A stretch of DNA of 64,000 nt from Longimicrobiales bacterium (GTDB taxonomy: Bacteria; Gemmatimonadota; Gemmatimonadetes; Longimicrobiales; Gaopeijiaceae), in the NCBI GenBank assembly GCA_965116905.1, contig OZ220732.1, forward strand, positions 1,952,001-2,016,000, written 5' to 3'. Under the pieces are notes generated by a model, which did no database searches, was not told the DNA's origin, and saw only the letters and a list, made by a program, of their open reading frames with translations. Shown piece after piece: positions 5,285-21,272 of the stretch (its first letter is position 1; each line of letters starts with the position of its first letter). Position numbers and translations under genes: made by a program.

Positions 5285-5964
5285 CGGCCACTCCGCCCCC
5301 GGAGACGCGGCCACGTGAGCGGCTTCAGCGCCACGGGCCCGGCCCCCTCTCCGAGCAGGAGCTTCTCGCGCTGGTGATCGGTTCCGGAAGCGCGGCGATG
5401 CCCGCACACCGTCTGGCCGAGCGGGTACTCGACCTGTCCGGGGGACGGCTTCGGGACCTGGCTCGGGTCGACCCGGGCATTCTGGTCGGCATCCCGGGAA
5501 TCGGCCCGGCCATGGCCGCGAGGATCGTCGCGGCCATCGAACTGGGCAAACGCGTGGGGTCCGCCCGCTCCCGTCACGAGGATCCCATATCGGGGCCTGG
5601 AGATGTGCACGACATCTTTGCGCCCGCTCTGGCCCACCTCGCGCACGAGGAATTCCACGTTCTGCTGCTCAACGCCCAGAACATCGCGATCTGCCAGCGG
5701 CAGGTCACGCGGGGCATTCTCGACGCGTCCCTCATCCATCCCCGCGAGGTCTTCCGCGATGCGATCGTTCTCAGGGCGGCGGGCCTGATCCTGGTGCACA
5801 ACCATCCGTCGGGGAATCCGGAGCCTTCCGCAGAGGACCTCAAGGTGACACGGCAGCTGAGCGTTGCGGGAGACCAACTGGGCATCCCGGTCCTGGACCA
5901 CATTATCGTGGCGGGAGGGACGTTTTCGTCGCTTGCGGGGCGGGGCTGTCTGCGGGGACCTTGA
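5260..5964 (+). CDS. radC: RadC/JAB-domain protein (start uncertain)
   Basis: RPRERL..G...LS..ELLA, HhH GIGPA, HPREVF, HNHPSGNPEPSAED and LDHII. Confidence 0.92.
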   Translation: MLLPSGGIAATPPPETRPRERLQRHGPGPLSEQELLALVIGSGSAAMPAHRLAERVLDLSGGRLRDLARVDPGILVGIPGIGPAMAARIVAAIELGKRVGSARSRHEDPISGPGDVHDIFAPALAHLAHEEFHVLLLNAQNIAICQRQVTRGILDASLIHPREVFRDAIVLRAAGLILVHNHPSGNPEPSAEDLKVTRQLSVAGDQLGIPVLDHIIVAGGTFSSLAGRGCLRGP

Positions 5965-6001
5965 AGGGGGTTCCGATAACGATCCGATCCGGAGGGGTGC
6001 A

Positions 6002-7909
6002 TTGAACGGGACCAACCCGGCGCGGCGGGAGCGCATCCCCGTTCGCGTCATGAAGGATCATGACGCTATCGCGGCCGAGGTGGCCGGGCGCATCTCGGCG
6101 CTCATGCGGCAGCGTGCCAAGGAGGGCCGCGATGTCGTGCTCGGGCTCGCGACGGGCTCGACGCCCGTGGGCGTCTACCGCGAACTGATTCGGCTGCACC
6201 GCGACGAAGGGCTCGACTTCTCCAACGTCGTCACCTTCAACCTCGACGAGTACTACCCGATGCAGCCTGGCAGCATCCACAGCTACCATCGCTACATGCG
6301 GGAGAACCTCTTCGAGCACGTCAACATCTGTCCCGATCGCTGCCACATACCCCGTGGTGACCTGGCCGGAAAGGAGGTGGAGGCTCACTGTCGCGACTTC
6401 GAGCGCCGCATTCGGGCTGCCGGAGGCATCGACCTGCAGATTCTGGGCATCGGTCGCACAGGTCACATCGGCTTCAACGAACCCGGGTCGGCCCGCCGTT
6501 CGCGCACGCGGCAACTCTACCTCGACACGGTCACGCGGGCCGACGCCGCGGCCGATTTCTTCGGCGAGGAAAACGTGCCGCCGCAGGCGATCACCATGGG
6601 GGTTGCGACCATTCTGGAGGCCCGCGAAGTCGTGCTGCTGGCTACTGGCGAACACAAGGCCGCGATCGTGCGTCGCGCCGTCGAGGGCGAGGTTCATGCC
6701 GATGTGGCCGCTACGTTCCTGCAGCAGCACCCGGCCTCGACCGTCTATCTGGATCCCGCGGCGGCTGCGGATCTCACACGGATCCGCACGCCCTGGCTGG
6801 TCGGAGATGTTGAATGGACGCCCCACTGGGAGACCGAGGCGGTGGTCTGGCTCAGCCAGCGCACCGGCAAGCCCATCCTCCACCTGGCCACCGACGACTA
6901 CCGGGAGCACCACCTCGGGTCGCTGGTGTCGCGATATGGGTCGGCCGAGCCGCTCAACGGGGAGGTCTTCAATACCCTGATCGCCAAGATCCGCGGCAAG
7001 AGTCGACTGCCGCGCGGCCAGAGGATGCTGGTTTTCTCGCCGCACCCCGACGACGACGTGATCTCGATGGGAGGGCTGCTGCGGAAGCTCACGGAGAACG
7101 GCAACCACGTTACCGTCGCCTACCAGACGTCGGGGAACATCGCCGTCTTCGACCACGAGGTGCGGCGCTACCTGGACTTCATGCGCAGGACGGCCAGGGT
7201 GATCGACCTTGGGGACAGGGAAGTCCTGGAGGACGTCTTGAGGTCCGTGGAGGAGGATCTTGCCGGGAAGGAGCCCGGTGACGTCGATTCCGCCGTCGTG
7301 CAGGATCTGAAACGGATCATCCGCGAGAGCGAGGCGTCGGCGGGCATTGCCGAACTGGGCCTGTCCACCGATCACGCGCGCTTCCTCAACATGCCGTTCT
7401 ACCAGACGGGGGAGGTCAGGAAGGATCCGATCTCGGAGGCCGACGTGCAGATCGTCGTCGGCCTGCTGGAGGAAGTGCGTCCGACGATGGTGTTCGCCGC
7501 GGGCGACCTGTCCGACCCGCACGGAACCCACCGCATGTGCCTGGAGGCGGTCGAGCGTGCACTCGCGCGCTACGGCGGCGACCCGCCCTGGCTCTGGCTG
7601 TATCGCGGCGCCTGGCAGGAGTGGAGCGTGAACGAGGCGACGGTGCTCGTACCGCTTTCGGACGGCGAGATGCGCGCCAAGGTGCAGGCGATCTTCCGGC
7701 ACGAGTCGCAGAAGGATTCGGCTCCCTTCCCCGGTCCGGACGACCGCGAGTTCTGGCAGCGTGTGGTCGACCGCAACCGGGGGACGGCGGACCTGCTTCA
7801 GTCACTGGGACTGCCCGCGTATCGTGCCATGGAGGCGTACGTGACGTTGCGGGCGGGGTGCCGGGTGGAGGCGCAGGAGATTCCGACATCGTCGCTGGCG
7901 GAGAAGTAG
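6002..7909 (+). CDS. nagB: Glucosamine-6-phosphate deaminase fused to a PIG-L-like deacetylase domain
   Basis: LGLATGSTP, FNLDEYYP and GIGRTGHIGFNEPGS, then C-terminal SPHPDDDVISMGG and DPHGTH. TTG start at 6002 is an estimate. Confidence 0.93.
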   Translation: MNGTNPARRERIPVRVMKDHDAIAAEVAGRISALMRQRAKEGRDVVLGLATGSTPVGVYRELIRLHRDEGLDFSNVVTFNLDEYYPMQPGSIHSYHRYMRENLFEHVNICPDRCHIPRGDLAGKEVEAHCRDFERRIRAAGGIDLQILGIGRTGHIGFNEPGSARRSRTRQLYLDTVTRADAAADFFGEENVPPQAITMGVATILEAREVVLLATGEHKAAIVRRAVEGEVHADVAATFLQQHPASTVYLDPAAAADLTRIRTPWLVGDVEWTPHWETEAVVWLSQRTGKPILHLATDDYREHHLGSLVSRYGSAEPLNGEVFNTLIAKIRGKSRLPRGQRMLVFSPHPDDDVISMGGLLRKLTENGNHVTVAYQTSGNIAVFDHEVRRYLDFMRRTARVIDLGDREVLEDVLRSVEEDLAGKEPGDVDSAVVQDLKRIIRESEASAGIAELGLSTDHARFLNMPFYQTGEVRKDPISEADVQIVVGLLEEVRPTMVFAAGDLSDPHGTHRMCLEAVERALARYGGDPPWLWLYRGAWQEWSVNEATVLVPLSDGEMRAKVQAIFRHESQKDSAPFPGPDDREFWQRVVDRNRGTADLLQSLGLPAYRAMEAYVTLRAGCRVEAQEIPTSSLAEK

Positions 7910-7978: not shown

Positions 7979-8143
7979 ATGTCAGAGTGTCCCGTATGTG
8001 CCGGAGAAGTCGAGATCTCTCCCGACCCCGTGGAAGGAGAGTTGCTGGAATGCGACGAGTGCGGCGTCGAACTCGAGATTCTGGCCCTGAAACCCCTAAC
8101 GCTCGGGGAGGCTCCCGAAGCGGAAGAGGATTGGGGGGAATGA
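7979..8143 (+). CDS. lysW: Amino-group carrier protein LysW (54 aa, absent from the ORF track)
   Basis: Manual translation: [54 protein letters not shown]. Two CxxC zinc-ribbon motifs and the diagnostic C-terminal EDWGE. GAGGAG RBS upstream; stop overlaps lysX ATG (ATGA). Confidence 0.97.
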
Positions 8144-8985
8144 GGGTAGGCTTCCTTCATTCCCTGATCCGGAAGGACGAGAAGCTCCTGATCGCGGAAC
8201 TCCGGAAGCGGGACGACATGGAGCTGGTCTTCCTGGACGACCGCAAACTCGTCCTGGACCTTGGGCACGCCCCCGAAGTCGACATCGTGCTGGAGCGGTC
8301 GATCAACCATTCGCGAGCCATGCACGCGTTGCGCCTCTTCGAGGGCGCGGGCACGCGGTGCGTCAACACCTATGAAGTCGCGCGCCGGTGCGGGGACAAG
8401 ATCCTCACCGCCGTGTCGCTGCAGGAGAGCGGGGTGCCTCAGCCCGAGGTGCGCGTCGCGTTTACGCCCGAGTCGGCGCTGGTGGCGATCGAGGAGCTGG
8501 GCTACCCGGCCGTGCTCAAGCCGGCGGTCGGTTCGTGGGGCCGCCTGCTGTCGAAGATCAACGACCGGGACGCGGCGGAGACCGTGCTCGAGCACAAGTC
8601 CATCCTGGGCAGCTACCACCATTCGATCTTCTTCGTGCAGGAGTACGTGGAGAAGAACGGCCGCGACATCCGCGCATTCGTGGTCGGCGACCAGTGCGTC
8701 GCGGCGATCTACCGCTCGTCCGAGCACTGGATCACCAACACCGCCCGGGGCGCCCGCGCCACCAACTGCCCCGTGACCGTCCCCCTCGCCGAGATGGCCC
8801 TGCGCGCTGCGGACGCGGTCGGCGGCGGGGTCCTTGCGGTCGACCTCTTCGAGACCGCGGACGGCCTCCTGGTCAACGAGGTCAACTACACGATGGAGTT
8901 CCGCAACAGCGTCGACGTCACGGGGGTGAACATCCCCGAGCGCGTCGTGTCCTACGTGGCGGCGGCCGGATCGTCCCGCCCATGA
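8140..8985 (+). CDS. lysX: [LysW]-aminoadipate/glutamate ligase LysX (RimK-type ATP-grasp)
   Basis: [36 protein letters not shown] and [12 protein letters not shown]. Follows lysW. Confidence 0.95.
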
Positions 8986-10004
8986 TCCGGGTCGCGATCG
9001 CGGGGGGCTCCGGCTATGCCGGCGGCGAGCTGTTACGGCTGCTCACTGCGCACCCCGATGCGGACGTCGTCCAGATCACGTCGGAACGACTGGCCGGCAA
9101 GCTCGCGCACCGTGCCCACCCCAATCTGCGCGGCAACACGCGGCTCCGCTTCCGCACCCTCGGCGAACTGAACGAGTGCGACGTCCTCTTTTCCTGCCTG
9201 CCGCACGGCGAGTCCGCGCGTCGTATCGACGACTTCCGCCGCATCGCTCCCCGCGTGATCGACCTCGGCGCCGACTTCCGCCTGGGCGATGCCACCGAAT
9301 ACGAGCGCTTTTACGGGAGCCAGCACCCCCGCCCCGACCTGCTTGGCCGATTCGTCTACGGGATCGCGGAACTGAACCGGGACGCACTCGCCCATGCCGA
9401 CCTGGTGGCGTGCGCCGGTTGCAACGCGACGGCCGCGATCCTCGCGCTTCGTCCCTTGTACCTGGAGGGAGTGGCGGACTCGGCGGTGGTCGAGGTGAAG
9501 GTCGGCTCGAGCGAGGCCGGCAACCGCCCGACGCCCGGGAGCCACCATCCCGAGCGGAGCGGCGCCATGCGCTCGTACAAGCCCACCGGGCATCGCCACC
9601 TGGCCGAGATTCGCGCCGCGCTAGGGGGAGACATTCACTTTTCGGCGACCGCGGTCGAGATGGTGCGGGGTGTCCTCGCCACCTGTCACGCATTCGTGAA
9701 CCGCGACCTCGACGACAAGGCGCTGTGGCGGATCTATCGGAAGGCCTACGCCTCCGAACCCTTCGTCCGAATCGTCAAGGAACGCGCCGGGATCCATCGG
9801 TACCCGGACCCCAGTCTGCTTGCGGGCTCGAACTACTGCGATGTCGGATTCGAGCGCGATCCGCTGGCCGGACGCGTCGTGGTGGTGAGCGCGATCGACA
9901 ACCTCATGAAGGGAGCGGCCGGGCAGGCGGTGCAGGCCTTCAACGTGATGCATGGTCTTCCCGAGACCCGTGGGCTGGAGTTCCCCGGCCTGCACCCGGC
10001 CTGA
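8982..10004 (+). CDS. lysY: [LysW]-aminoadipyl-phosphate reductase LysY (ArgC family)
   Basis: [23 protein letters not shown] catalytic Cys, SHHPERSG and [14 protein letters not shown]. Confidence 0.93.
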
Positions 10005-10011
10005 CCGGCCG

Positions 10012-10749
10012 ATGTGCCGCCTGTTGTGCGTTCAGGGCCGCGAGGCCTTCGAGATGGCGGGTCACCTCGATGCGTTCGCAGCCGTCGCCAGAGACTGCCG
10101 TGAGTATCAGGGTCACGGCTGGGGATGCGCGTGGCTCGACCGCGGCGTGTGGCGGCTCCACCACGATATCGCACCGATCTGGGAGGATTCCTGGAGGCCG
10201 CCGGGCCGGACGAAGCTGCTCGTGGCTCATGCGAGAAGCGCGTTCCGCGACGAGGGAATCCGCGTGGAGAACAATATGCCGTTCACCGACGGAGAACGCG
10301 TGTTCGTCTTCAACGGCGAACTCCACGGCGTGAGGATCAAGGAGCGGGGCCGAATCGGCGCCGAGAAGGTGTTCAACTTCGTCAAGCGCTTCGATCGCGG
10401 AGATTTCGGGCTGGCGCTGCAGCGGGGACTCGGGGTGATCGAGAAGCGCACCCGCCACGTGCGTGCAATGAACCTGATCGTGGCCGACCGGTCGGCTCAG
10501 GTTCACGTTGCGATGAACTTCCGGGAGGATCCCGAATACTTTCAAATGCACACTGCGGAATCGGACGGTTTCCGGATCGTCTGCTCCGATCCCTATCCCG
10601 AGTCCACCGGGCGCCGCCCGTCCGAGGCGTCCGGCGGGTTGCCCGAGCCCTTTGCGCCCGAAGCCCATGCGGGGGCGGCCGTGGCGTGGGTTCCCCTGCG
10701 GAAGGGTGAGGTGCTGACCTTCAACCGCGAACCGTCCGGCCAGCGATGA
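10012..10749 (+). CDS. Class II glutamine amidotransferase / Ntn-hydrolase (YafJ/EgtC-like); candidate LysK replacement
   Basis: Starts MCRLL (Cys2 nucleophile). GHGWG, AHARSA, ENNMPF and FVFNGEL motifs. Sits 7 bp after lysY and 13 bp before lysZ. Confidence 0.85.
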   Translation: MCRLLCVQGREAFEMAGHLDAFAAVARDCREYQGHGWGCAWLDRGVWRLHHDIAPIWEDSWRPPGRTKLLVAHARSAFRDEGIRVENNMPFTDGERVFVFNGELHGVRIKERGRIGAEKVFNFVKRFDRGDFGLALQRGLGVIEKRTRHVRAMNLIVADRSAQVHVAMNFREDPEYFQMHTAESDGFRIVCSDPYPESTGRRPSEASGGLPEPFAPEAHAGAAVAWVPLRKGEVLTFNREPSGQR

Positions 10750-10762
10750 ATGGAGTGACAAG

Positions 10763-11554
10763 GTGCTGCTCGTAAAGATCGGCGGCGGTGAGTCAATCAA
10801 TCTGGCGGGCATCGCCAGCGACCTTGCCGATGTCGATGATTCCGTCTGCATCGTCCACGGGGCCAACGCGCTTCGTGACGACCTGGCGCGGCGGCTGGAG
10901 GTGGACAAGCAGGTTCTGACCTCCGTTTCGGGTTACACCAGCGTGTACACGGACGAGAAGCTCATGGACGTGATGCTCATGGCCTACTCGGGGCTCCGCA
11001 ACAAGCGCCTGGTGGAGCTGTTGCAGAGGCACGGGGTGAATGCGGTGGGACTTACCGGCCTGGACGGTGCTCTCGTTCGCGGCACGCGCAACAAGGGCAT
11101 CCGCGTGCGGCAGGGTGGGAAGACCCTGATCAAGCGGGATCTGTCGGGCAAGCCGGTCACGGTGAACGGGCAACTGCTCCGGCTCCTGCTGGACAACGGC
11201 TACACGCCGGTCGTGACCGTGCCGGTGATCGACGAAAACAGTTTTGCCATCAACTCGGAAAACGACGACGTCGTCGCCGCGTTGAATACGGTGCTGAAGG
11301 CGAGCATAGTGGTGCAATTGATCGAGGCGCCCGGCATCCTGGAGGACCGTCACGACCCCGGATCCCTGATCCGGCGCATCCCGCGTGGCGAATTGGCCGA
11401 TCGGGAGAAGCGTGTGGCTGGCCGCATGAAACGCAAGCTGCTGGCGCTCAGACGGCTCACCGAAGAGTCGTCGACGCAGGTGGTGGTGGCGGACGGACGC
11501 CGCGAAAAGCCGCTGACGGATGCGCTGGCCGGCGAGGGGACCGTGATCCTGTGA
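10763..11554 (+). CDS. lysZ: [LysW]-aminoadipate kinase LysZ (ArgB family)
   Basis: VKIGGG, VHGAN, SGYTSVYTD, RDLSGKP and GRMKRKL, in lysW operon context. Confidence 0.92.
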   Translation: MLLVKIGGGESINLAGIASDLADVDDSVCIVHGANALRDDLARRLEVDKQVLTSVSGYTSVYTDEKLMDVMLMAYSGLRNKRLVELLQRHGVNAVGLTGLDGALVRGTRNKGIRVRQGGKTLIKRDLSGKPVTVNGQLLRLLLDNGYTPVVTVPVIDENSFAINSENDDVVAALNTVLKASIVVQLIEAPGILEDRHDPGSLIRRIPRGELADREKRVAGRMKRKLLALRRLTEESSTQVVVADGRREKPLTDALAGEGTVIL

Positions 11555-12747
11555 GCACACGCGCGGACCGGCCCGGCAAGGCAGTTCCCGAGCCTCGGGA
11601 CGCGCAGGCGACCGAGCGCGCCTATGGGCTTGAAGTCTATCCCAAGCGTGACCTTACAGTCGTCAGGGGAAGGGGAGCGGAGGTCTGGGACGACAACGGC
11701 CGCCGCTACATCGACTGCGTCGCTGGGATCGGGGTGGCAAGTGTCGGACACGCCAACGCTGCGGTCGCCGCGGCCGTGGCCGAACAGGCGCGAACGCTTG
11801 TGACCTGCCCCGGGATCTTCTACAACGACACGCGCGCGCGTCTGCTGGAGAAGCTGGCCGAGGTGGCCCCCGAAGGCCTCTCACACGCCTTTCTTTGCAA
11901 CTCGGGAACCGAGGCGATCGAGGCGGCGTTCAAGTTCGCGCGCATCGTGACGGGACGCGTCGGAGTCGTTTCGACCATGCGTGGGTTTCACGGCCGGACG
12001 CTCGGGGCCCTCAGCGCGACGCACAGGAAGGACTACCGGGAGCGGTTCAAGCCCCTCGTCCCGGGCTTCTCGTTCGTGCCGTTCAACAATGTGGACAAGC
12101 TGCGCGCGGCGGTGAGCGAAGCCACGGCGGCGGTGGTGATCGAGCCCATCCAGGGGGAGGGGGGAATCCGTCCCGCAAACGCGGAGTTCCTCCATGCGGC
12201 GCGCGAGGCATGCGATGAAGCGGGCGCCCTCCTGATCTTCGACGAGATCCAGACCGGCTTTTGCCGTACGGGCAGGATGTTCGCGTGCGAGCACTACGAG
12301 GTGACGCCGGACATCCTGTGCCTCGCCAAGGCGATGGGCGGCGGAGTGCCGATCGGGGCGGTGCTCGCGGTCGACCGGGTCAGCCCGCCAGTCGGCAAGC
12401 ACGGCACCACGTTCGGCGGGAATCCGCTCGCCTGCGCGGCCGCCCTGGCCGCGATCCGGTTCATGGAGGATGAGCGGTTGGCGGAGCGGGCGGCACGTCT
12501 CGGCACCCGCTTCCGCACACGGTTCGAGCGGCACTCGCCCGCTCGCGTGCGGGCGCTTCGTCAGGTCGGTCTGATGATCGGCGTCGAACTGCGCGAACGC
12601 TGCGTGCCGTACCTCAAGGCGCTGATGGAGCGAGGCGTGCTGGCGCTGCCGGCTGGAAAGACCGTGATCCGCGTGCTGCCGCCGCTGGTGATCAGCGAGG
12701 AGCAGATCGACGAAGTCGTGGACACGCTGGTTGACGTATTGGCCTAG
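11551..12747 (+). CDS. lysJ: [LysW]-aminoadipate semialdehyde transaminase LysJ (ArgD family, class III PLP)
   Basis: [46 protein letters not shown] and [12 protein letters not shown]. Confidence 0.92.
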
Positions 12748-14849: not shown

Positions 14850-14935
14850 ATTGGTGGGAAAGGTCGTGTACGGGCGGCTTCGGCGCTATTCTTCATTGGA
14901 GTTGATGTTTGGCCCGTGGTGCAACGGAGATGCTG

Positions 14936-16963
14936 ATGGCTGTTGCGACGGACGATGTAGCGACCAGCGCCCTGACGCTGCCCGAGGAGCTCATCCTGAT
15001 GCTCCTCAACGAGGAGAACGGCTACTTCCACCAGGTGCCCGGCTGGCGGCTGAACTGCGCCGTTGTCGGCGCGGTGCTCGCCGAACTCTCGCTGCTCTCG
15101 CGGATCGACACGGACCTGGAGTCCCTGTTCCTTGTCGACTCGGAGAAAACGGGTGACCCTGCCCTGGACCCCATTCTGGAGGAAATCGCGGGCGAATCGG
15201 TGCAGCACAACGCGCAGTACTGGATCGAACGGCTGGCCCACCGTGCCGAGTCCGTCATCGACCTGACCCTCGACCGTCTGGTCGAACTGAAGATCCTGGA
15301 ATACCACGACGGCGATTTCTGGACGGTGGCTCGTACCGTCGTGCACTCGGACATGTACGGCGACCCCGAGGAGGACACGGCTGGGCAGTTCATCAAGACG
15401 CGGATCGGCAAGGCGATCTTCACCGACGCGATTCCGGACCCGAGAGACGTGATCGTCATTTGTCTCGTCAATACCTGCGATGTCTTCCGGTTCATGTTCC
15501 AGCTCGACGACGATGCCGAGGACCGCATCGAGTTCATTTGCAAGATGGATCTGATCGGCCGCTCGATCGCCGCGGCGGTCATGCAAAACGTCGCGGGGCC
15601 ACTGCTTCGGCGTTCCCGCCTGAGCAAGCACATTCCGCGCGTCGCCATGCGCAGGCTGCTGCTCAATTCCAACTTGCGCACCGGTAATCTTCCCGCGCTC
15701 TTTGCGGATCTCGCCAAAGAGTATGGCCCCGTGTACCAGATCCGTCCGCCGCTCAGGAAGCCCATGGTCTTCCTTGCGGGAACCGAGGTCAACCGCTGGA
15801 CGAATCGGCACGGGCGGATGCACCTGAGAACGAGGGACTACTTCGCCGATTTCGAGAAGGTCTACGGTGCATCCGGCGTCTTGCCCTCTCTGGACGGCGC
15901 GGACCATTTCCGGCTTCGCAAGGCCCTGGCGCCGGCATACTCGCGCCGGAGACTCGCGGATCAGGTGGACCAGCTTCTCCACCATAGCCGGACGCACATG
16001 GCCGAATGGCGGGCCGGTGACACCGTCTCCGCGACGAAGATGTGTCGGCGCCTGATCAACGCGCAGATTTCGCCGATGTATGTCAGCGTGGACTCGCAGG
16101 ACATCTTCGACGACATCGCGACATACAAGGAACGGGCGCTCAACGTTCACATCACCAAGGCCCTGCCCGGGTTCATGCTGAAGACTCCGGGAATGAAACG
16201 GCGGGCCAAGGCCGTGGATACGCTTCTGGCACGCATCCAGAGTGTTCATACGCCCGCGCAGCGAGCCGGGTGCCCGCGGAACCTCGCGGATGATCTGCTG
16301 AGCCTCAATGCGAGCGATCCGCAGTTCGTTCCGGAGTCGAACCTGCGTTTCGCGCTGTCCGCGGCGCTGATTGCCAGCGTGTACCTGGGCGACGCGTTCA
16401 GCTTTGTGGTCTACGCGATGGCGTCCAGGCCGGACGACTACGCGAGGATCCGGAGCGAAGCCGACGCTCTGTTCGGCGACGGCGATCCGGTTGGCGACGA
16501 CTTCACGCCATCCGCGTTGGACTTCACCCACCGCTTCCTCATGGAATGCCTGCGGATGTACCCGATTGTCCCGATGTCCATGCGCACCGTCATGAATGCG
16601 TGCGTGGTCGAGGGCTACGAACTGCCGGTGGGTACGACAATCCTGATCGCGCAGACGGCCCCGCACTTCATGGAAGACGTCTTCCGGGACCCGTTCACAT
16701 TCGATGTGGACCGCTATCGGGCTCCGCGTAATGAGCACCGGGGTCACGGGTATGCACCCTACGGCCTGGGCACGCACAGGTGTCTCGGCTTCCGCTGGAT
16801 GGAGCTGCAGTTGGCCATCAACGCCCTGATGGTCGCGCACTACTTCACGGTCAAGGTGTCCCCGGAGAACTTCAGGTTCAGGTTCAATCCCTTCCCGTCG
16901 ATGAAACCGAGCAAGAAGCTGAAGTTCCGCATCGCGGAGCAGGTGCGGGAACTGCCGGGCTAA
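14936..16963 (+). CDS. Cytochrome P450 with N-terminal GPP34/GOLPH3-like domain
   Basis: N-terminal LTLPEELILMLL...GAVLAELSL..RI (GPP34 signature). C-terminal ExxR (ECLR) and heme motif YGLGTHRCLG. GGAG RBS before 14936; 14930 is an alternative start. Confidence 0.88.
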   Translation: MAVATDDVATSALTLPEELILMLLNEENGYFHQVPGWRLNCAVVGAVLAELSLLSRIDTDLESLFLVDSEKTGDPALDPILEEIAGESVQHNAQYWIERLAHRAESVIDLTLDRLVELKILEYHDGDFWTVARTVVHSDMYGDPEEDTAGQFIKTRIGKAIFTDAIPDPRDVIVICLVNTCDVFRFMFQLDDDAEDRIEFICKMDLIGRSIAAAVMQNVAGPLLRRSRLSKHIPRVAMRRLLLNSNLRTGNLPALFADLAKEYGPVYQIRPPLRKPMVFLAGTEVNRWTNRHGRMHLRTRDYFADFEKVYGASGVLPSLDGADHFRLRKALAPAYSRRRLADQVDQLLHHSRTHMAEWRAGDTVSATKMCRRLINAQISPMYVSVDSQDIFDDIATYKERALNVHITKALPGFMLKTPGMKRRAKAVDTLLARIQSVHTPAQRAGCPRNLADDLLSLNASDPQFVPESNLRFALSAALIASVYLGDAFSFVVYAMASRPDDYARIRSEADALFGDGDPVGDDFTPSALDFTHRFLMECLRMYPIVPMSMRTVMNACVVEGYELPVGTTILIAQTAPHFMEDVFRDPFTFDVDRYRAPRNEHRGHGYAPYGLGTHRCLGFRWMELQLAINALMVAHYFTVKVSPENFRFRFNPFPSMKPSKKLKFRIAEQVRELPG

Positions 16964-17053: not shown

Positions 17054-20000
17054 ATGAGCGGGAACTCGAGCAATCACGGAGAACCTGGCGGCCCCATAGC
17101 CTATATGGCGAGCAACGGCGTCGCCGCCAATCTGCTCATGTTCGGGATCATTGCAGCGGGTCTGGTGTCGCTGACCGGTCTCGAGCAGGAGGGATGGCCC
17201 GAGGTACCCTTCAACCAGTTCGAGATCTCCGTGCCCTTCCCCGGCGCAACGCCCGAGGAGGTCGAGGAGGCCATCGTCGTCAAGATCGAGGACGAGGTCA
17301 GGGGACTCGCCGATGTGAAGGCAGTCAGGTCCATAGCCGCGCCCGGGATGGCGTCCGTCAGGGTCGAAGTCAACTCCGGTACGGACATGGGCGCCAAGAA
17401 AGACGAGATCGAGTCGGCGGTCGGGCGCATTCAGACGTTTCCGAGCGGAGCCGAGCGGCCCCAGATACGCGAGATGACCAACGCCCAGAGCGTGATTCGC
17501 CTGATTGTCTACGGCGACGTTCCCGAGCGCTCACTGAAGGAGCTCGCGTACCGGATCGAAGACGACCTCGCCGCGCTTCCCTCCGTCTCCCAGGTCGCGA
17601 CCAGCGGAGTGCGCGACTACGAGGTCTCGATCGAAGTGCCGCAGCAGCGTCTCAGAGCTCTCGGCCTGACCCTGACCGATATCGCGAACACGGTTCGCCG
17701 CAACTCGCTGGATTTGTCGGCGGGCAGCATCGATACCCGGGAGTCCCAGGTGCGGGTGCGCACACTGGGCCAGAGTTACGACCAAATGGATTTCGAGGAA
17801 ATCGTCATCCTCAGCCGGGACGACGGCACGGTCGTGCGCCTGGGTGATATCGCCGAAGTGCGTGACGGTTTTCAGGACACGGATCTGATCGTGCGGCATC
17901 AGGGCCGGCCCGCAGTCTTCGTCGAGGTATCCCGGGCGCAGGGCGAAAGGGTCATGAGCGTGGCGCGTGCCGTCAGGGAGCACATAGCCGACGAGGTGAT
18001 CCCCTCCCTTCCCAACGGCGTGGGCGTGACCATCTGGAACGACGACTCCACGGCGTTCACGGAGCGTGGCGCCCTCCTCCTCAAGAACGGGGCTCTGGGG
18101 CTGCTGCTGGTGTTGATCGCGCTGGGTCTTTTTCTGGAAGTCCGGCTGGCCTTCTGGGTAGCCGTCGGCCTTGGCGTTTCGGGGATCGGCGCCCTGGCCG
18201 CCATGATGATGTTCGACATCGCGATCCACGCTGTCTCGCTCTTCTCTTTCGTGCTCGCCATCGGAATCATCGTGGACGATGCGATCGTCGTTGCCGAACA
18301 TATCCATCTGGAACGAATGCGAGGCACATCCGGTGTCGTCGCCGCGATCCGTGGTGCGCGGCGGATCAGGGTGCCGCTGATCTTCGCGGTGCTCACCACC
18401 ATCGTTGCGTTCGTGCCCCTGCTCTTCATTCCCGCGGGGTTCGGAGAAGTCTGGAAGGCGCTGCCCATCATCGTCATCGCCATGCTGGTGATCTCACTGA
18501 TCGAATCGCTGCTGGTGCTGCCGAACCACCTGTCGCACCATCTGCACGGCCCCGATTGGACGCCCCGAACGGGCGCGGAACGGTTCGTCGCCCGCATCCA
18601 GGGTCGGGTCGATTCCCTGCTGGACCGTTTCATCCAGGGTCCCCTGGATCACGCGATGCGGTTCGCGACCGATCAACCCGGCGTAACGCTCTCCGCGGCT
18701 GCCGCCCTCTTCATTCTGACCGTTTCCCTGCTGCCGGCGGGCATCGTACCAACCACCTTTGCGACCGAGGTCGAGGGGGACTTCGTAACCGCCACCCTTC
18801 AGATGCCGGACGGAACCACCGCGCGGCAGACGGACGCGGTGGCACAGGACCTGGAAGCGGCCGGTCACAGGGTCATCCAGCGTCTCTCCGAGGGCCGGCC
18901 CGCGGATGCGCCTCCGCTTCTATCCGGCGTTACGGTCGTCGTTGGTCAGCGGTCGCGGATCGAGACTGGTGGTCTCAACCCCTCGCCCACCCTGAATCCC
19001 GAAGCCAATATCGCCACCATCGAGTTCAAGCTCCTGCCCGCGCAGCAGCGACGCATCACTTCGGGAGAAGTCATGCAGGCCTGGCGTGAGGAAGTGGGTA
19101 TCCTGCCCCAGGTGCGCGCGATCACCTTCATGAGCGAGATCTACACGCTGGGCAACCCGGTGGAGGCCGTGCTGTCCCATCCGGATCCGGAGCGCCTGGT
19201 GACGATCGCGTCATCCATGGTCGATGAACTCCGTCGAGTGGCGGGGGTCTTTGACATTCGCTCGGATCACACGCCCGGCGTCCCGGAGATTCAGCTGGGA
19301 CTGTTGCCCGAGGCACGAACCCTCGGCCTGACGCTCGACGCCCTGGCCCAGCAGGCGAGAGCCGTCTTCTTTGGGGCGGAGGCCCTGAGGGTGCAGCGGG
19401 GCCGCGACGAAGTCCGCGTCTACGTCCGGCTGCCCGAGGAGCAGCGCAACTCGATCACCGATATCGAGAACTACCTGTTCCGTACGGCAACCGGCGCCGA
19501 GGTGCCGGTGAGCCGTGTGGCTTCACTGAGTATGGGCATGTCGCCGCCGGCCATCCATCGCCAGGACGGCCAGCGCGTCGTCACGGTCACCGCCGATGTG
19601 GACCCGAATGTGATTACCGCCGGGGAAGCCAATGGCATCCTGGAAAACACCATCATCGCAGGACTGGTCGATACGAACCCCGAACTGACCTATACCTTCG
19701 GCGGCGAACAGCAGCAGCAGCTCGACTCTCTGGGCGCGCTCTACCGCGGTTTCGCGATCGCGTTGCTGATCATCTTCGCGCTGCTGGCCATTCCGCTGCG
19801 TTCCTATACCAAGCCGTTCATTATCATGGCCATCATTCCGTTCGGGTTCGTCGGCGTGATCCTGGGCCACTGGGTCCTGGGAGTGGCGTTGAGCGCGGAG
19901 TCCTTTGTCGGGATATTCGGCCTGGCGGGCGTGGTGGTGAACGATTCCCTGGTCATGATGGACTTCATCGATCAGGAACTCGAGGAGGGCCTGCCCGCGC

Positions 20001-20233
20001 GCGAGGCGATCATCGAGGGAGCCAAGGGCCGTTTTCGTCCGATCATGCTGACTTCCCTGACCACCTTCCTCGGCTTCACGCCGCTGATTCTCGAGGACGC
20101 GATTCAGGCCCAGTTCTTCGTCCCCTTCTCCGCCTCGATCGGGTGCGGCATCCTCTTCACCACGGCCATACTGATGTTCCTGGTGCCCGCGCTGTCCTCG
20201 CTGCGCCTGCACTTGACCACCCGGAATTCCTAG
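17054..20233 (+). CDS. RND efflux transporter permease (AcrB/AcrD/AcrF-like)
   Basis: PGATPEEVE, GIIVDDAIVVAE, GVVVNDSLV and RFRPIMLTSLTT. About 12 hydrophobic segments. Confidence 0.93.
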   Translation: MSGNSSNHGEPGGPIAYMASNGVAANLLMFGIIAAGLVSLTGLEQEGWPEVPFNQFEISVPFPGATPEEVEEAIVVKIEDEVRGLADVKAVRSIAAPGMASVRVEVNSGTDMGAKKDEIESAVGRIQTFPSGAERPQIREMTNAQSVIRLIVYGDVPERSLKELAYRIEDDLAALPSVSQVATSGVRDYEVSIEVPQQRLRALGLTLTDIANTVRRNSLDLSAGSIDTRESQVRVRTLGQSYDQMDFEEIVILSRDDGTVVRLGDIAEVRDGFQDTDLIVRHQGRPAVFVEVSRAQGERVMSVARAVREHIADEVIPSLPNGVGVTIWNDDSTAFTERGALLLKNGALGLLLVLIALGLFLEVRLAFWVAVGLGVSGIGALAAMMMFDIAIHAVSLFSFVLAIGIIVDDAIVVAEHIHLERMRGTSGVVAAIRGARRIRVPLIFAVLTTIVAFVPLLFIPAGFGEVWKALPIIVIAMLVISLIESLLVLPNHLSHHLHGPDWTPRTGAERFVARIQGRVDSLLDRFIQGPLDHAMRFATDQPGVTLSAAAALFILTVSLLPAGIVPTTFATEVEGDFVTATLQMPDGTTARQTDAVAQDLEAAGHRVIQRLSEGRPADAPPLLSGVTVVVGQRSRIETGGLNPSPTLNPEANIATIEFKLLPAQQRRITSGEVMQAWREEVGILPQVRAITFMSEIYTLGNPVEAVLSHPDPERLVTIASSMVDELRRVAGVFDIRSDHTPGVPEIQLGLLPEARTLGLTLDALAQQARAVFFGAEALRVQRGRDEVRVYVRLPEEQRNSITDIENYLFRTATGAEVPVSRVASLSMGMSPPAIHRQDGQRVVTVTADVDPNVITAGEANGILENTIIAGLVDTNPELTYTFGGEQQQQLDSLGALYRGFAIALLIIFALLAIPLRSYTKPFIIMAIIPFGFVGVILGHWVLGVALSAESFVGIFGLAGVVVNDSLVMMDFIDQELEEGLPAREAIIEGAKGRFRPIMLTSLTTFLGFTPLILEDAIQAQFFVPFSASIGCGILFTTAILMFLVPALSSLRLHLTTRNS

Positions 20234-20234
20234 T

Positions 20235-21272
20235 CTAGTGGCCCTGAAGAGGCTTGCGCGCCAGGAAGCAGTATAGCGGCGTAAAGATCCCTGTCCTGCC
20301 GCCAGCGACATAGGCGTCTGCAGTCCGATCCATGAGTTCGACAACCTCTGCCGATCCCTTGGGGAACACCCGCAGCAACTCGGCCAGCCTGGATCCCCAG
20401 AAAAACATCTTGCGACCCATCGGAGCCTGGAAGAGAGCGGTGCCGAGCCGCCCGTGCCGGGTTTCCATGGGCCGATACCACGGCGTGGCCGAACCGGTCT
20501 CATCGACGGCGAGGTCCGTCGCCTCCAGAACCTCGAATCCCGCGGTTTCGAGGTCCCGGTCCACCTCCCCAAACGTTGCGATGTCCCGAAGCGCGATGCC
20601 GTGCATGAGTTCCCGCTTGATGGTCCGGTGGCGATTGTCGTCGGGATTGTACATGTCCGTCATGCACATTTCCTGGCCCCAGAAGAGGGCTCCGGGCTTG
20701 AGGACACGTTGGATTTCGGCAAACGCGTGCGCCTTGTCGGGAGCATGGCACGTCGATTCGATCGCGTAGCCCCGGTCGAAGGTCGCGTCCGCGATGGAGC
20801 TCATGTTCATGAAGCTGCACGCGAGGCAGTCGATCATGTGATCGAGCCCCGCCTCGGCATTCAGCGACCTGGCCCTCCTCAGCTGGACTTCACTGCTGTT
20901 GATTCCCAGTACCCGGACACCGGCCTCGCGGGCGACGCGGCGCATTGGACCCCCGATGCCGCAGCCGATGTCGGCCACCGTCATGCCTTCACGCAGTTCC
21001 AGGCTGGCGATCATCCGCCGCTGGTGCCGCACCTTGGAGTCCTTCAGGCTCTCGCCGGGCGACAGCGGCGCGAAGTGCAGGGATTCTCCCCAGCCGAAGA
21101 CCATCAATTCGCTGCAAAGGTCGTAGTATTCCTTTACGGTCCGGGTGTGGTCGTAGTCGGCGCCGCCATCCGTGGCGAACGCTCTGTCCGTCCACCCCTC
21201 GAAGTCCCGCACGCGGCGGCGGACGTTCGTTCTGCCGAACGCGGCCTTCAGTCCATCGGATAGTCGATGCAT
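20235..21272 (-). CDS. Sterol C-24 methyltransferase-like SAM methyltransferase (ERG6/SMT family)
   Basis: YYDL....FGWGESLHFA, DIGCGIGGP, YAIESTCHAP, RVLKPG and C-terminal VAGGRTGIFTPLY. Confidence 0.85.
   Translation of the reverse strand: MHRLSDGLKAAFGRTNVRRRVRDFEGWTDRAFATDGGADYDHTRTVKEYYDLCSELMVFGWGESLHFAPLSPGESLKDSKVRHQRRMIASLELREGMTVADIGCGIGGPMRRVAREAGVRVLGINSSEVQLRRARSLNAEAGLDHMIDCLACSFMNMSSIADATFDRGYAIESTCHAPDKAHAFAEIQRVLKPGALFWGQEMCMTDMYNPDDNRHRTIKRELMHGIALRDIATFGEVDRDLETAGFEVLEATDLAVDETGSATPWYRPMETRHGRLGTALFQAPMGRKMFFWGSRLAELLRVFPKGSAEVVELMDRTADAYVAGGRTGIFTPLYCFLARKPLQGH

Follow-up and report, generated by a model that had tools for sequence, protein, structure and literature searches.

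A class II amidotransferase-like Ntn hydrolase with glycine at the conserved aspartate position is encoded in LysK-less LysW operons and is predicted to act on LysW-gamma-glutamyl amides

The window, that is the whole stretch of 64,000 nucleotides analysed here, carries on its forward strand an operon of six genes in the order lysW, lysX, lysY, hydrolase, lysZ and lysJ (Table 1). No lysK follows lysJ in this operon, and in the host genome, which is 97% complete, the best match to the LysK model TIGR01902 reaches 64 bits against a cut-off of 163.1. The same genome contains seven matches to generic M20 hydrolases, the best of them with 64 bits. The product of the fourth gene, hereafter the hydrolase, scores 17.9 bits against GATase_4 (PF13230), below the gathering score of 23, and 26.7 bits against the EgtC model TIGR03442, where the cut-off of 218.65 is not reached. 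Profile searches gave no M20 match to the hydrolase, the fold being of the Ntn type instead. A synthase domain is absent from the protein, and its neighbours are lysY and lysZ, not the genes of an ergothioneine operon. Its closest relatives are encoded in Gemmatimonadota metagenome genomes; NCBI and Atlas label the relatives 'hypothetical' or 'class II glutamine amidotransferase'. An upstream ATG at 9952, which lies inside lysY, was rejected as start codon because the MCR start is invariant in the family. A low-confidence insertion of approximately 25-30 residues (about residues 197-225, window 10600-10690) is confined to the closest relatives; the length of most family members is 210-225 aa. 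A plasmid match was sought and none was found.

Table 1. The lysW operon, predicted functional motifs of the hydrolase and further loci (positions refer to the window unless a contig or locus is given)
Feature	Position	Strand	Remarks
lysW carrier	7979..8143	+	54 aa, net charge -16, C-terminus EDWGE; TIGR01206 above cut-off
lysX ligase	8140..8985	+	signature F-I-T-NS; TIGR02144 336 bits vs cut-off 275.6
lysY reductase	8982..10004	+	sole ArgC-family gene found in genome
Class II amidotransferase-like Ntn hydrolase	10012..10749	+	245 aa, start MCRLL; predicted LysW-gamma-glutamyl amide hydrolase
lysZ kinase	10763..11554	+	NF010659 237 bits vs cut-off 223
lysJ aminotransferase	11551..12747	+	final operon gene; TIGR00707 passed; best match NF042418 below cut-off 700
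Cys2, predicted N-terminal nucleophile	10015..10017	+	142/142 members
AHARSAF with HxR Arg75	10225..10245	+	AHARSA at 10225-10242; Arg75 142/142, Phe78 123/142
NNMPF, NxHPF equivalent	10270..10284	+	position 89 Met or Gln
FNG, predicted oxyanion hole Asn101-Gly102	10309..10317	+	Asn101 142/142, Gly102 140/142
Basic patch RIKERGR	10333..10353	+	K/R 0.27 in family vs 0.18 over residues 105-114
GRIGAEK, TDSE Asp position	10348..10368	+	GRIGAE at 10348-10365; Gly116 codon 10357-10359
Basic patch KRTRHVR	10444..10464	+	K/R 0.36 in family vs 0.12 in 47 others
Host genome genes	G000:C1		lysA 3112538-3113758, dapB 3718463-3719248, argG 3341246-3342415, argF 3268564-3269442
lysW genes ending in EDWGQ	L060, L073, L076, L086, L087, L110, L111, L119, L127
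lysW genes ending in EDWGQ, continued	L222, L224, L227, L231, L234, L237, L246, L249		and others

In an AlphaFold2 model (pLDDT 92) the hydrolase is predicted to adopt the alpha-beta-beta-alpha, class II amidotransferase-type Ntn fold. The nearest solved structure is EgtC (PDB 4zfj, 4zfk, 4zfl; TIGR03442), with Z 26.0, an rmsd of 1.9 A over 202 residues and a Foldseek E value of 9e-12. GlmS and PurF come next with Z of about 22 (GlmS 1xff: Z 22.1, rmsd 2.4 A over 198). EgtC and the hydrolase share the stand-alone Ntn fold, Cys2, the Arg and the Asn-Gly pair; however, the two are 18% identical, and EgtC retains the Asp of the class II amidotransferases, whereas the hydrolase has Gly116 in this place and is encoded in a lysW operon. 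The substrate of EgtC is a small molecule whose alpha-amine is free; the enzyme cleaves a gamma-glutamyl amide to the alpha-amine of an amino acid. In the LysW pathway the amino acid is attached to the carrier through its own alpha-amino group (bioRxiv 10.1101/2021.12.28.474397). By analogy, the bond cleaved by EgtC would be of the same type as that in LysW-gamma-lysine, which we count in favour of the proposed release role. Members of the YafJ/DUG3/GATase_4 group (PF13230; PDB 1te5, 3mdn) and the glutaminase domains of GlmS, PurF and AsnB match the hydrolase with 99.8-99.9% in profile comparisons and with Z 16-22, and all those tested keep the Asp, unlike the hydrolase.

The hydrolase gene was found in LysK-less LysW operons of several bacterial phyla. 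Each of the 80 close loci has lys genes around it; lysW is visible in 76, and contig ends cut the other four. For a distant clade, about 30-38% identical, 79 metagenome loci were fetched. Genes for lys functions were detected by tblastn in 69 of them, and the end of lysJ in two more at a relaxed threshold or by eye. Hence 71 of the 73 informative distant loci adjoin lys genes, the remaining six of the 79 having 73 bases or fewer upstream. The hydrolase gene of this clade mostly stands right after lysJ, which is the slot of lysK in LysK-type operons. With these counts the Gly form of the protein is not a common form away from lysW, in line with the first-pass annotation, which had tied it to the carrier. 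Among the 251 genomes from the phylum of G041, all three family matches are located in lys operons. Two copies, in L181 and L186, do not adjoin lys biosynthesis genes. A class I lysyl-tRNA synthetase gene directly follows the hydrolase gene in L186 (1250-3559, by eye) and in L119 (8664-10148, TIGR00467). The operon of L060 (G033) has lysW, lysX and lysY, with neither lysZ nor lysJ within 8 kb downstream. A copy in genome G276 (L315:9917-10532, G276:C7) was considered as a counter-example and rejected as a decayed remnant: it is without the first 40 residues including the Cys, and by eye it runs on from a short lysJ-like 5' fragment. No LysX or LysY match was obtained in genome G276. An integrase-like ORF adjoins the remnant in L315 (by eye).

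The genes for the hydrolase and for LysK are mutually exclusive in the sampled genomes. The sample from the window's phylum comprises 201 genomes. LysX is borne by 19 of them, 17 with the hydrolase, two with LysK and none with both, and no hydrolase was found in the 182 LysX-negative genomes. The phylum of G026 is represented by 301 genomes, of which 33 bear LysX. Leaving out one unpublished LysX genome, 32 were counted, 16 with the hydrolase, 16 with LysK and again none with both; in addition, one LysX-negative genome has a decayed, Cys-less hydrolase remnant. LysK above cut-off was present in 0/50 and 0/15 hydrolase-bearing genomes. These counts come from samples of incomplete genomes, and kin among them are not independent. 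LysK is an M20 metallopeptidase (TIGR01902), the [LysW]-lysine/ornithine hydrolase, whose reaction is the one proposed for the Ntn hydrolase and whose slot after lysJ is taken by the Ntn hydrolase gene in the distant clade, but its fold and chemistry are unrelated to those of the Ntn hydrolase. We are confident, though short of certain, that the hydrolase is a non-orthologous replacement of LysK. If this is true, a cysteine Ntn enzyme takes over the task of a metallopeptidase, and the final step that had been missing from the synthesis of lysine or ornithine on LysW is accounted for in many bacteria that are uncultured. Of the LysX-bearing genomes in the Acidobacteriota sample, one half use the hydrolase gene.

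The carriers encoded beside the hydrolase differ in their last residue. Among the loci compared here, LysW ending in EDWGQ instead of EDWGE was seen only in hydrolase-type operons. Within the phylum of G026, 8/14 hydrolase-linked LysW end in Gln versus 0/16 LysK-linked ones (Fisher p 5e-4). When all loci are pooled, where genomes are likewise not independent, the contrast of 23/113 versus 0/15 is weak (p 0.07), since every carrier in the large clade of Gemmatimonadota ends in Glu. On a quick tree of 68 hydrolases the endings require up to 12 changes between Q and E, at least four of them forced by strong branches. Covariation between hydrolase columns and the Q/E ending of LysW, looked for in 68 pairs, appeared only in scattered non-pocket columns, which we read as a mark of shared ancestry. 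Since LysX needs a gamma-carboxyl, a Gln-ending LysW is unloadable before deamidation. Gln-ending carriers fit the hydrolysis of gamma-amides at the last, alpha-N-peptide-bonded residue of LysW; the hydrolase probably deamidates these carriers too, and lysW genes ending in Gln would then be explained. We found no description of the hydrolase or of Gln-ending LysW in the open literature, much work on LysW being carried by subscription journals. The feature is real and well conserved, and both the LysW pathway and EgtC-like hydrolases are already known.

The occurrence of Gln-ending carriers in hydrolase operons would also suit an enzyme devoted to carrier maintenance only, which removes the amide of Gln-ending LysW or clears mis-loaded amino acids from the carrier while an unlinked M20 hydrolase releases the product. 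Generic M20 hydrolases of the host genome could perform this release, and M20 genes are found a few kb from two hydrolase operons (G326, G350). However, the hydrolase gene is kept where LysW already ends in Glu, as do 90 of 113 unique hydrolase-linked carriers and also that of the window, and an exclusion of LysK in 19/19 and 32/32 genomes is not expected from mere maintenance. We regard such a restricted role as improbable and retain the replacement of LysK as our reading.

In class II amidotransferases the Arg of HxR binds the alpha-carboxylate of glutamine, and the Asp of TD(S/T)E binds its alpha-amino group. For human GFAT-1 the equivalent Arg95 is placed in the glutamate pocket, in a section of the paper in which the Asp is not named (PMC7000685), and our literature search found no text confirming the Asp as alpha-amino ligand. 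Cys2, AHARSA and FNG, described as retained in the first-pass annotation, are indeed all in place, and Cys2, Arg3, Arg75, Asn101, Gly113 and Gly116 are invariant in the 142 aligned family members. Moreover, the position of GRIGAE opposite GxTDSE, which had been assigned by eye, was reproduced by MAFFT, HMMER and HHalign. With the E. coli proteins YafJ, GlmS, PurF and AsnB, MAFFT sets GRIGAEK over GETDSEK of YafJ, SETDTEV of GlmS and TTSDSEI of PurF, and over the corresponding stretch of AsnB. With three actinobacterial EgtC-like proteins it gave the same Gly116/Asp register, the equivalent stretch of EgtC reading ESTVDSA with the Asp as residue 133 of the chain. The register was kept by HHalign with two control profiles, at probabilities of 99.9 and 99.8, and HMMER against PDB 3mdn aligned GkiGaek with GSTDSEV. 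Because the three programs concur, Gly116 occupies the Asp position; judged by these sequence and profile alignments together with the helix start in the model, it is the equivalent of the TD(S/T)E Asp.

Gly116 is present in 142/142 aligned family members, whose mean column identity is 24%. A second, overlapping set of unique full-length locus proteins has it in 165/165. Chance drift does not explain such conservation. The same column holds Asp in 47/47 class II amidotransferases from outside the family, comprising 26/26 nearest outgroup proteins, found by the family profile with 25-90 bits, and 21/21 GATase_4 controls (21 of 22 scored, locus L203 not being parsed). No lys genes lie within 1.5 kb of the 26 outgroup proteins, nor in the wider flanks of the 12 that were checked. 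As far as the alignment tells, the Asp is not retained at a neighbouring site: any Asp within residues 113-119 occurs in only 9/142 members, never at 116. The proteins of an unlinked clade (L301-L304, L306, L307) show GKIGAE or GxIGEE just after HNG and were dismissed as bearers of the motif, the real Asp being kept further on. They are class II amidotransferases from the phylum of G041 and the nearest outgroup by score, and have D, then T or S, then a hydrophobic residue instead of TDSE.

A class II amidotransferase fold with its catalytic residues might at first sight indicate an ordinary glutaminase, or a hydrolase of free gamma-glutamyl compounds, that feeds glutamate or ammonia to the pathway. 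Yet the Asp found in 47/47 relatives is missing, free ammonia is to our knowledge not required anywhere along the LysW route, and the release step would be left unfilled in LysK-less genomes. We give this assignment hardly any credence, and continue with the hydrolase as a replacement of LysK.

The family is characterised by the signature G-x-[IT]-G-[AS]-x-K, by which annotators can separate it from EgtC and YafJ. Two motifs emphasised in the first-pass annotation hold in part. Of IGAE, the Gly at the Asp position is invariant, but the Glu is not conserved (position 118: E in 64 and Q in 59 of 142), so that IGAE was discarded as a family signature. NNMPF is present in the window protein, but its Met is not conserved (position 89: Q in 70 and M in 66 of 142), and a missing His in NxHPF tells little because PurF also has Gln there; this motif was discarded likewise. 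Position 119 is Lys or Arg in 141/142 members and rarely so in relatives. Position 78, mostly Phe in the family, is Thr or Ser in 39/47 relatives, and position 115 is mainly Ile in the family versus Thr or Ser in relatives. In GlmS both positions presumably lie along the pocket for glutamine on its alpha-amino side, and their changes, with Arg75 kept, fit the idea of an adaptation accompanying the loss of the Asp.

The exchange of Asp for Gly arose once, on the stem of the clade, together with nine further columns of similar diagnostic power, ten in all. Being a trait of one clade, it matches lysW linkage as one event, and adaptation is thus statistically inseparable from a hitch-hiking change. 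Furthermore, helix 116-125 of the model begins with Gly116, and Gly is a common helix-cap residue, so the change could be structural. LysK might then have been replaced by an enzyme whose Gly merely hitch-hiked or capped a helix in the ancestor of the clade, with specificity given by surface docking and a pocket that still takes free gamma-glutamyl amides. Against this, the Gly is invariant in 142 sequences at a mean identity of 24%, and 47/47 relatives, with scores as low as 25 bits, retain the Asp. Moreover, positions 78 and 115 turn hydrophobic while Arg75 stays, changes centred on what we take to be the alpha-amino side of the pocket. We consider a neutral or structural origin of the Gly unlikely. 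The idea that keeping the Arg and losing the Asp is an adaptation to a LysW-bound Glu, put forward in the first-pass annotation, is supported, and the exclusion of LysK and the Gln-ending carriers add to this support.

The two basic patches that had been pointed out as possible docking sites for LysW are conserved as a property, most clearly at residues 145-151, but not residue by residue (Table 1). Residues 145-151 are the top-ranked seven-residue window for basicity in the family. The helix of residues 119-126 has a K/R fraction of 0.27 in the family versus 0.03 in relatives. Net charge has a median of +2 in the family versus -4 in the 21 controls; the window protein itself reaches only +2.

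That the replacement of LysK frees lysine or ornithine from LysW, with Gly116 serving the carrier chain as predicted here, is in our judgement likely. Concerning catalysis, binding mode and the reason for the glycine, we propose the following course. Removal of Met would free Cys2, which would attack the gamma-carbonyl of the terminal Glu of LysW. The oxyanion would be held by Asn101-Gly102, the amino acid would depart, and hydrolysis of the gamma-glutamyl thioester would give back LysW-Glu. The free alpha-carboxylate at the C-terminus of LysW would still be bound by Arg75. An Asp for a free alpha-ammonium would have no partner on LysW, because the alpha-nitrogen sits in the Gly-Glu peptide bond, and Gly116 would make room for the peptide chain of the carrier. 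That the residue is invariably Gly, and not Asn, Ser or Ala, suggests from the alignment that space is needed. Lys119 and the basic patches may engage the acidic tail of LysW, and the same chemistry would convert Gln-ending carriers to Glu-ending ones. This remodelling predicts that a G116D exchange trades carrier activity for activity on free glutamine. If true, it adds a class II amidotransferase that acts on a protein-bound gamma-glutamyl group.

More tentatively, and with somewhat less than even expectation, we suggest that one Asp-to-Gly change opened the pocket and that a single enzyme both matures LysW, from Gln to Glu, and unloads it in each cycle. Actinobacterial Dop, the Pup deamidase/depupylase, converts the C-terminal Gln of a carrier to Glu and also cleaves gamma-amides at that residue. 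Its fold is of the glutamine synthetase-like kind, and its substrate in protein degradation is an epsilon-lysine isopeptide; the likeness is one of functional analogy, and no homology is claimed. A combined enzyme of LysW maturation and unloading would be the metabolic counterpart of Dop in pupylation, and the signature G-x-[IT]-G-[AS]-x-K would in that case become a tag for protein-acting gamma-glutamyl hydrolases.

Concerning the amino acid that is made, lysine is suggested by the distant operons, which contain homocitrate synthase-like, homoaconitase-like and homoisocitrate dehydrogenase-like genes. The LysX signature F-I-T-NS of the window operon is of the aminoadipate type according to the part of a publication that treats such signatures (PMC12998189). 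The host genome holds lysA and dapB above cut-off, a dapA-like gene below it, and argF, argG, argH and argR, while argJ was not found there. Its lysY is the only ArgC-family gene, as in 15/17 hydrolase-bearing genomes of the phylum. No homocitrate synthase above cut-off was detected in the host genome; a single homocitrate synthase-like gene lies below, and a match of similar score occurs in lysW-less relatives. In view of the DAP genes, of argF, argG, argH and argR without argJ, of the lack of a second ArgC-family gene and of a clear homocitrate synthase, it is possible that the window operon makes ornithine, or both products, despite the aminoadipate-type signature of its LysX. As the remodelled residues face the carrier side, the choice between lysine and ornithine leaves the finding unaffected.

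Directly upstream of lysW in the window, a glucosamine-6-phosphate deaminase is fused to a PIG-L deacetylase-like domain (5864-7909). Judged by eye, the gene at 14909-16963 encodes a cytochrome P450-like domain fused behind an N-terminal domain of another kind, and its neighbours are an efflux gene of the RND type (17054-20233) and a gene resembling those of sterol methyltransferases (20235-21272).
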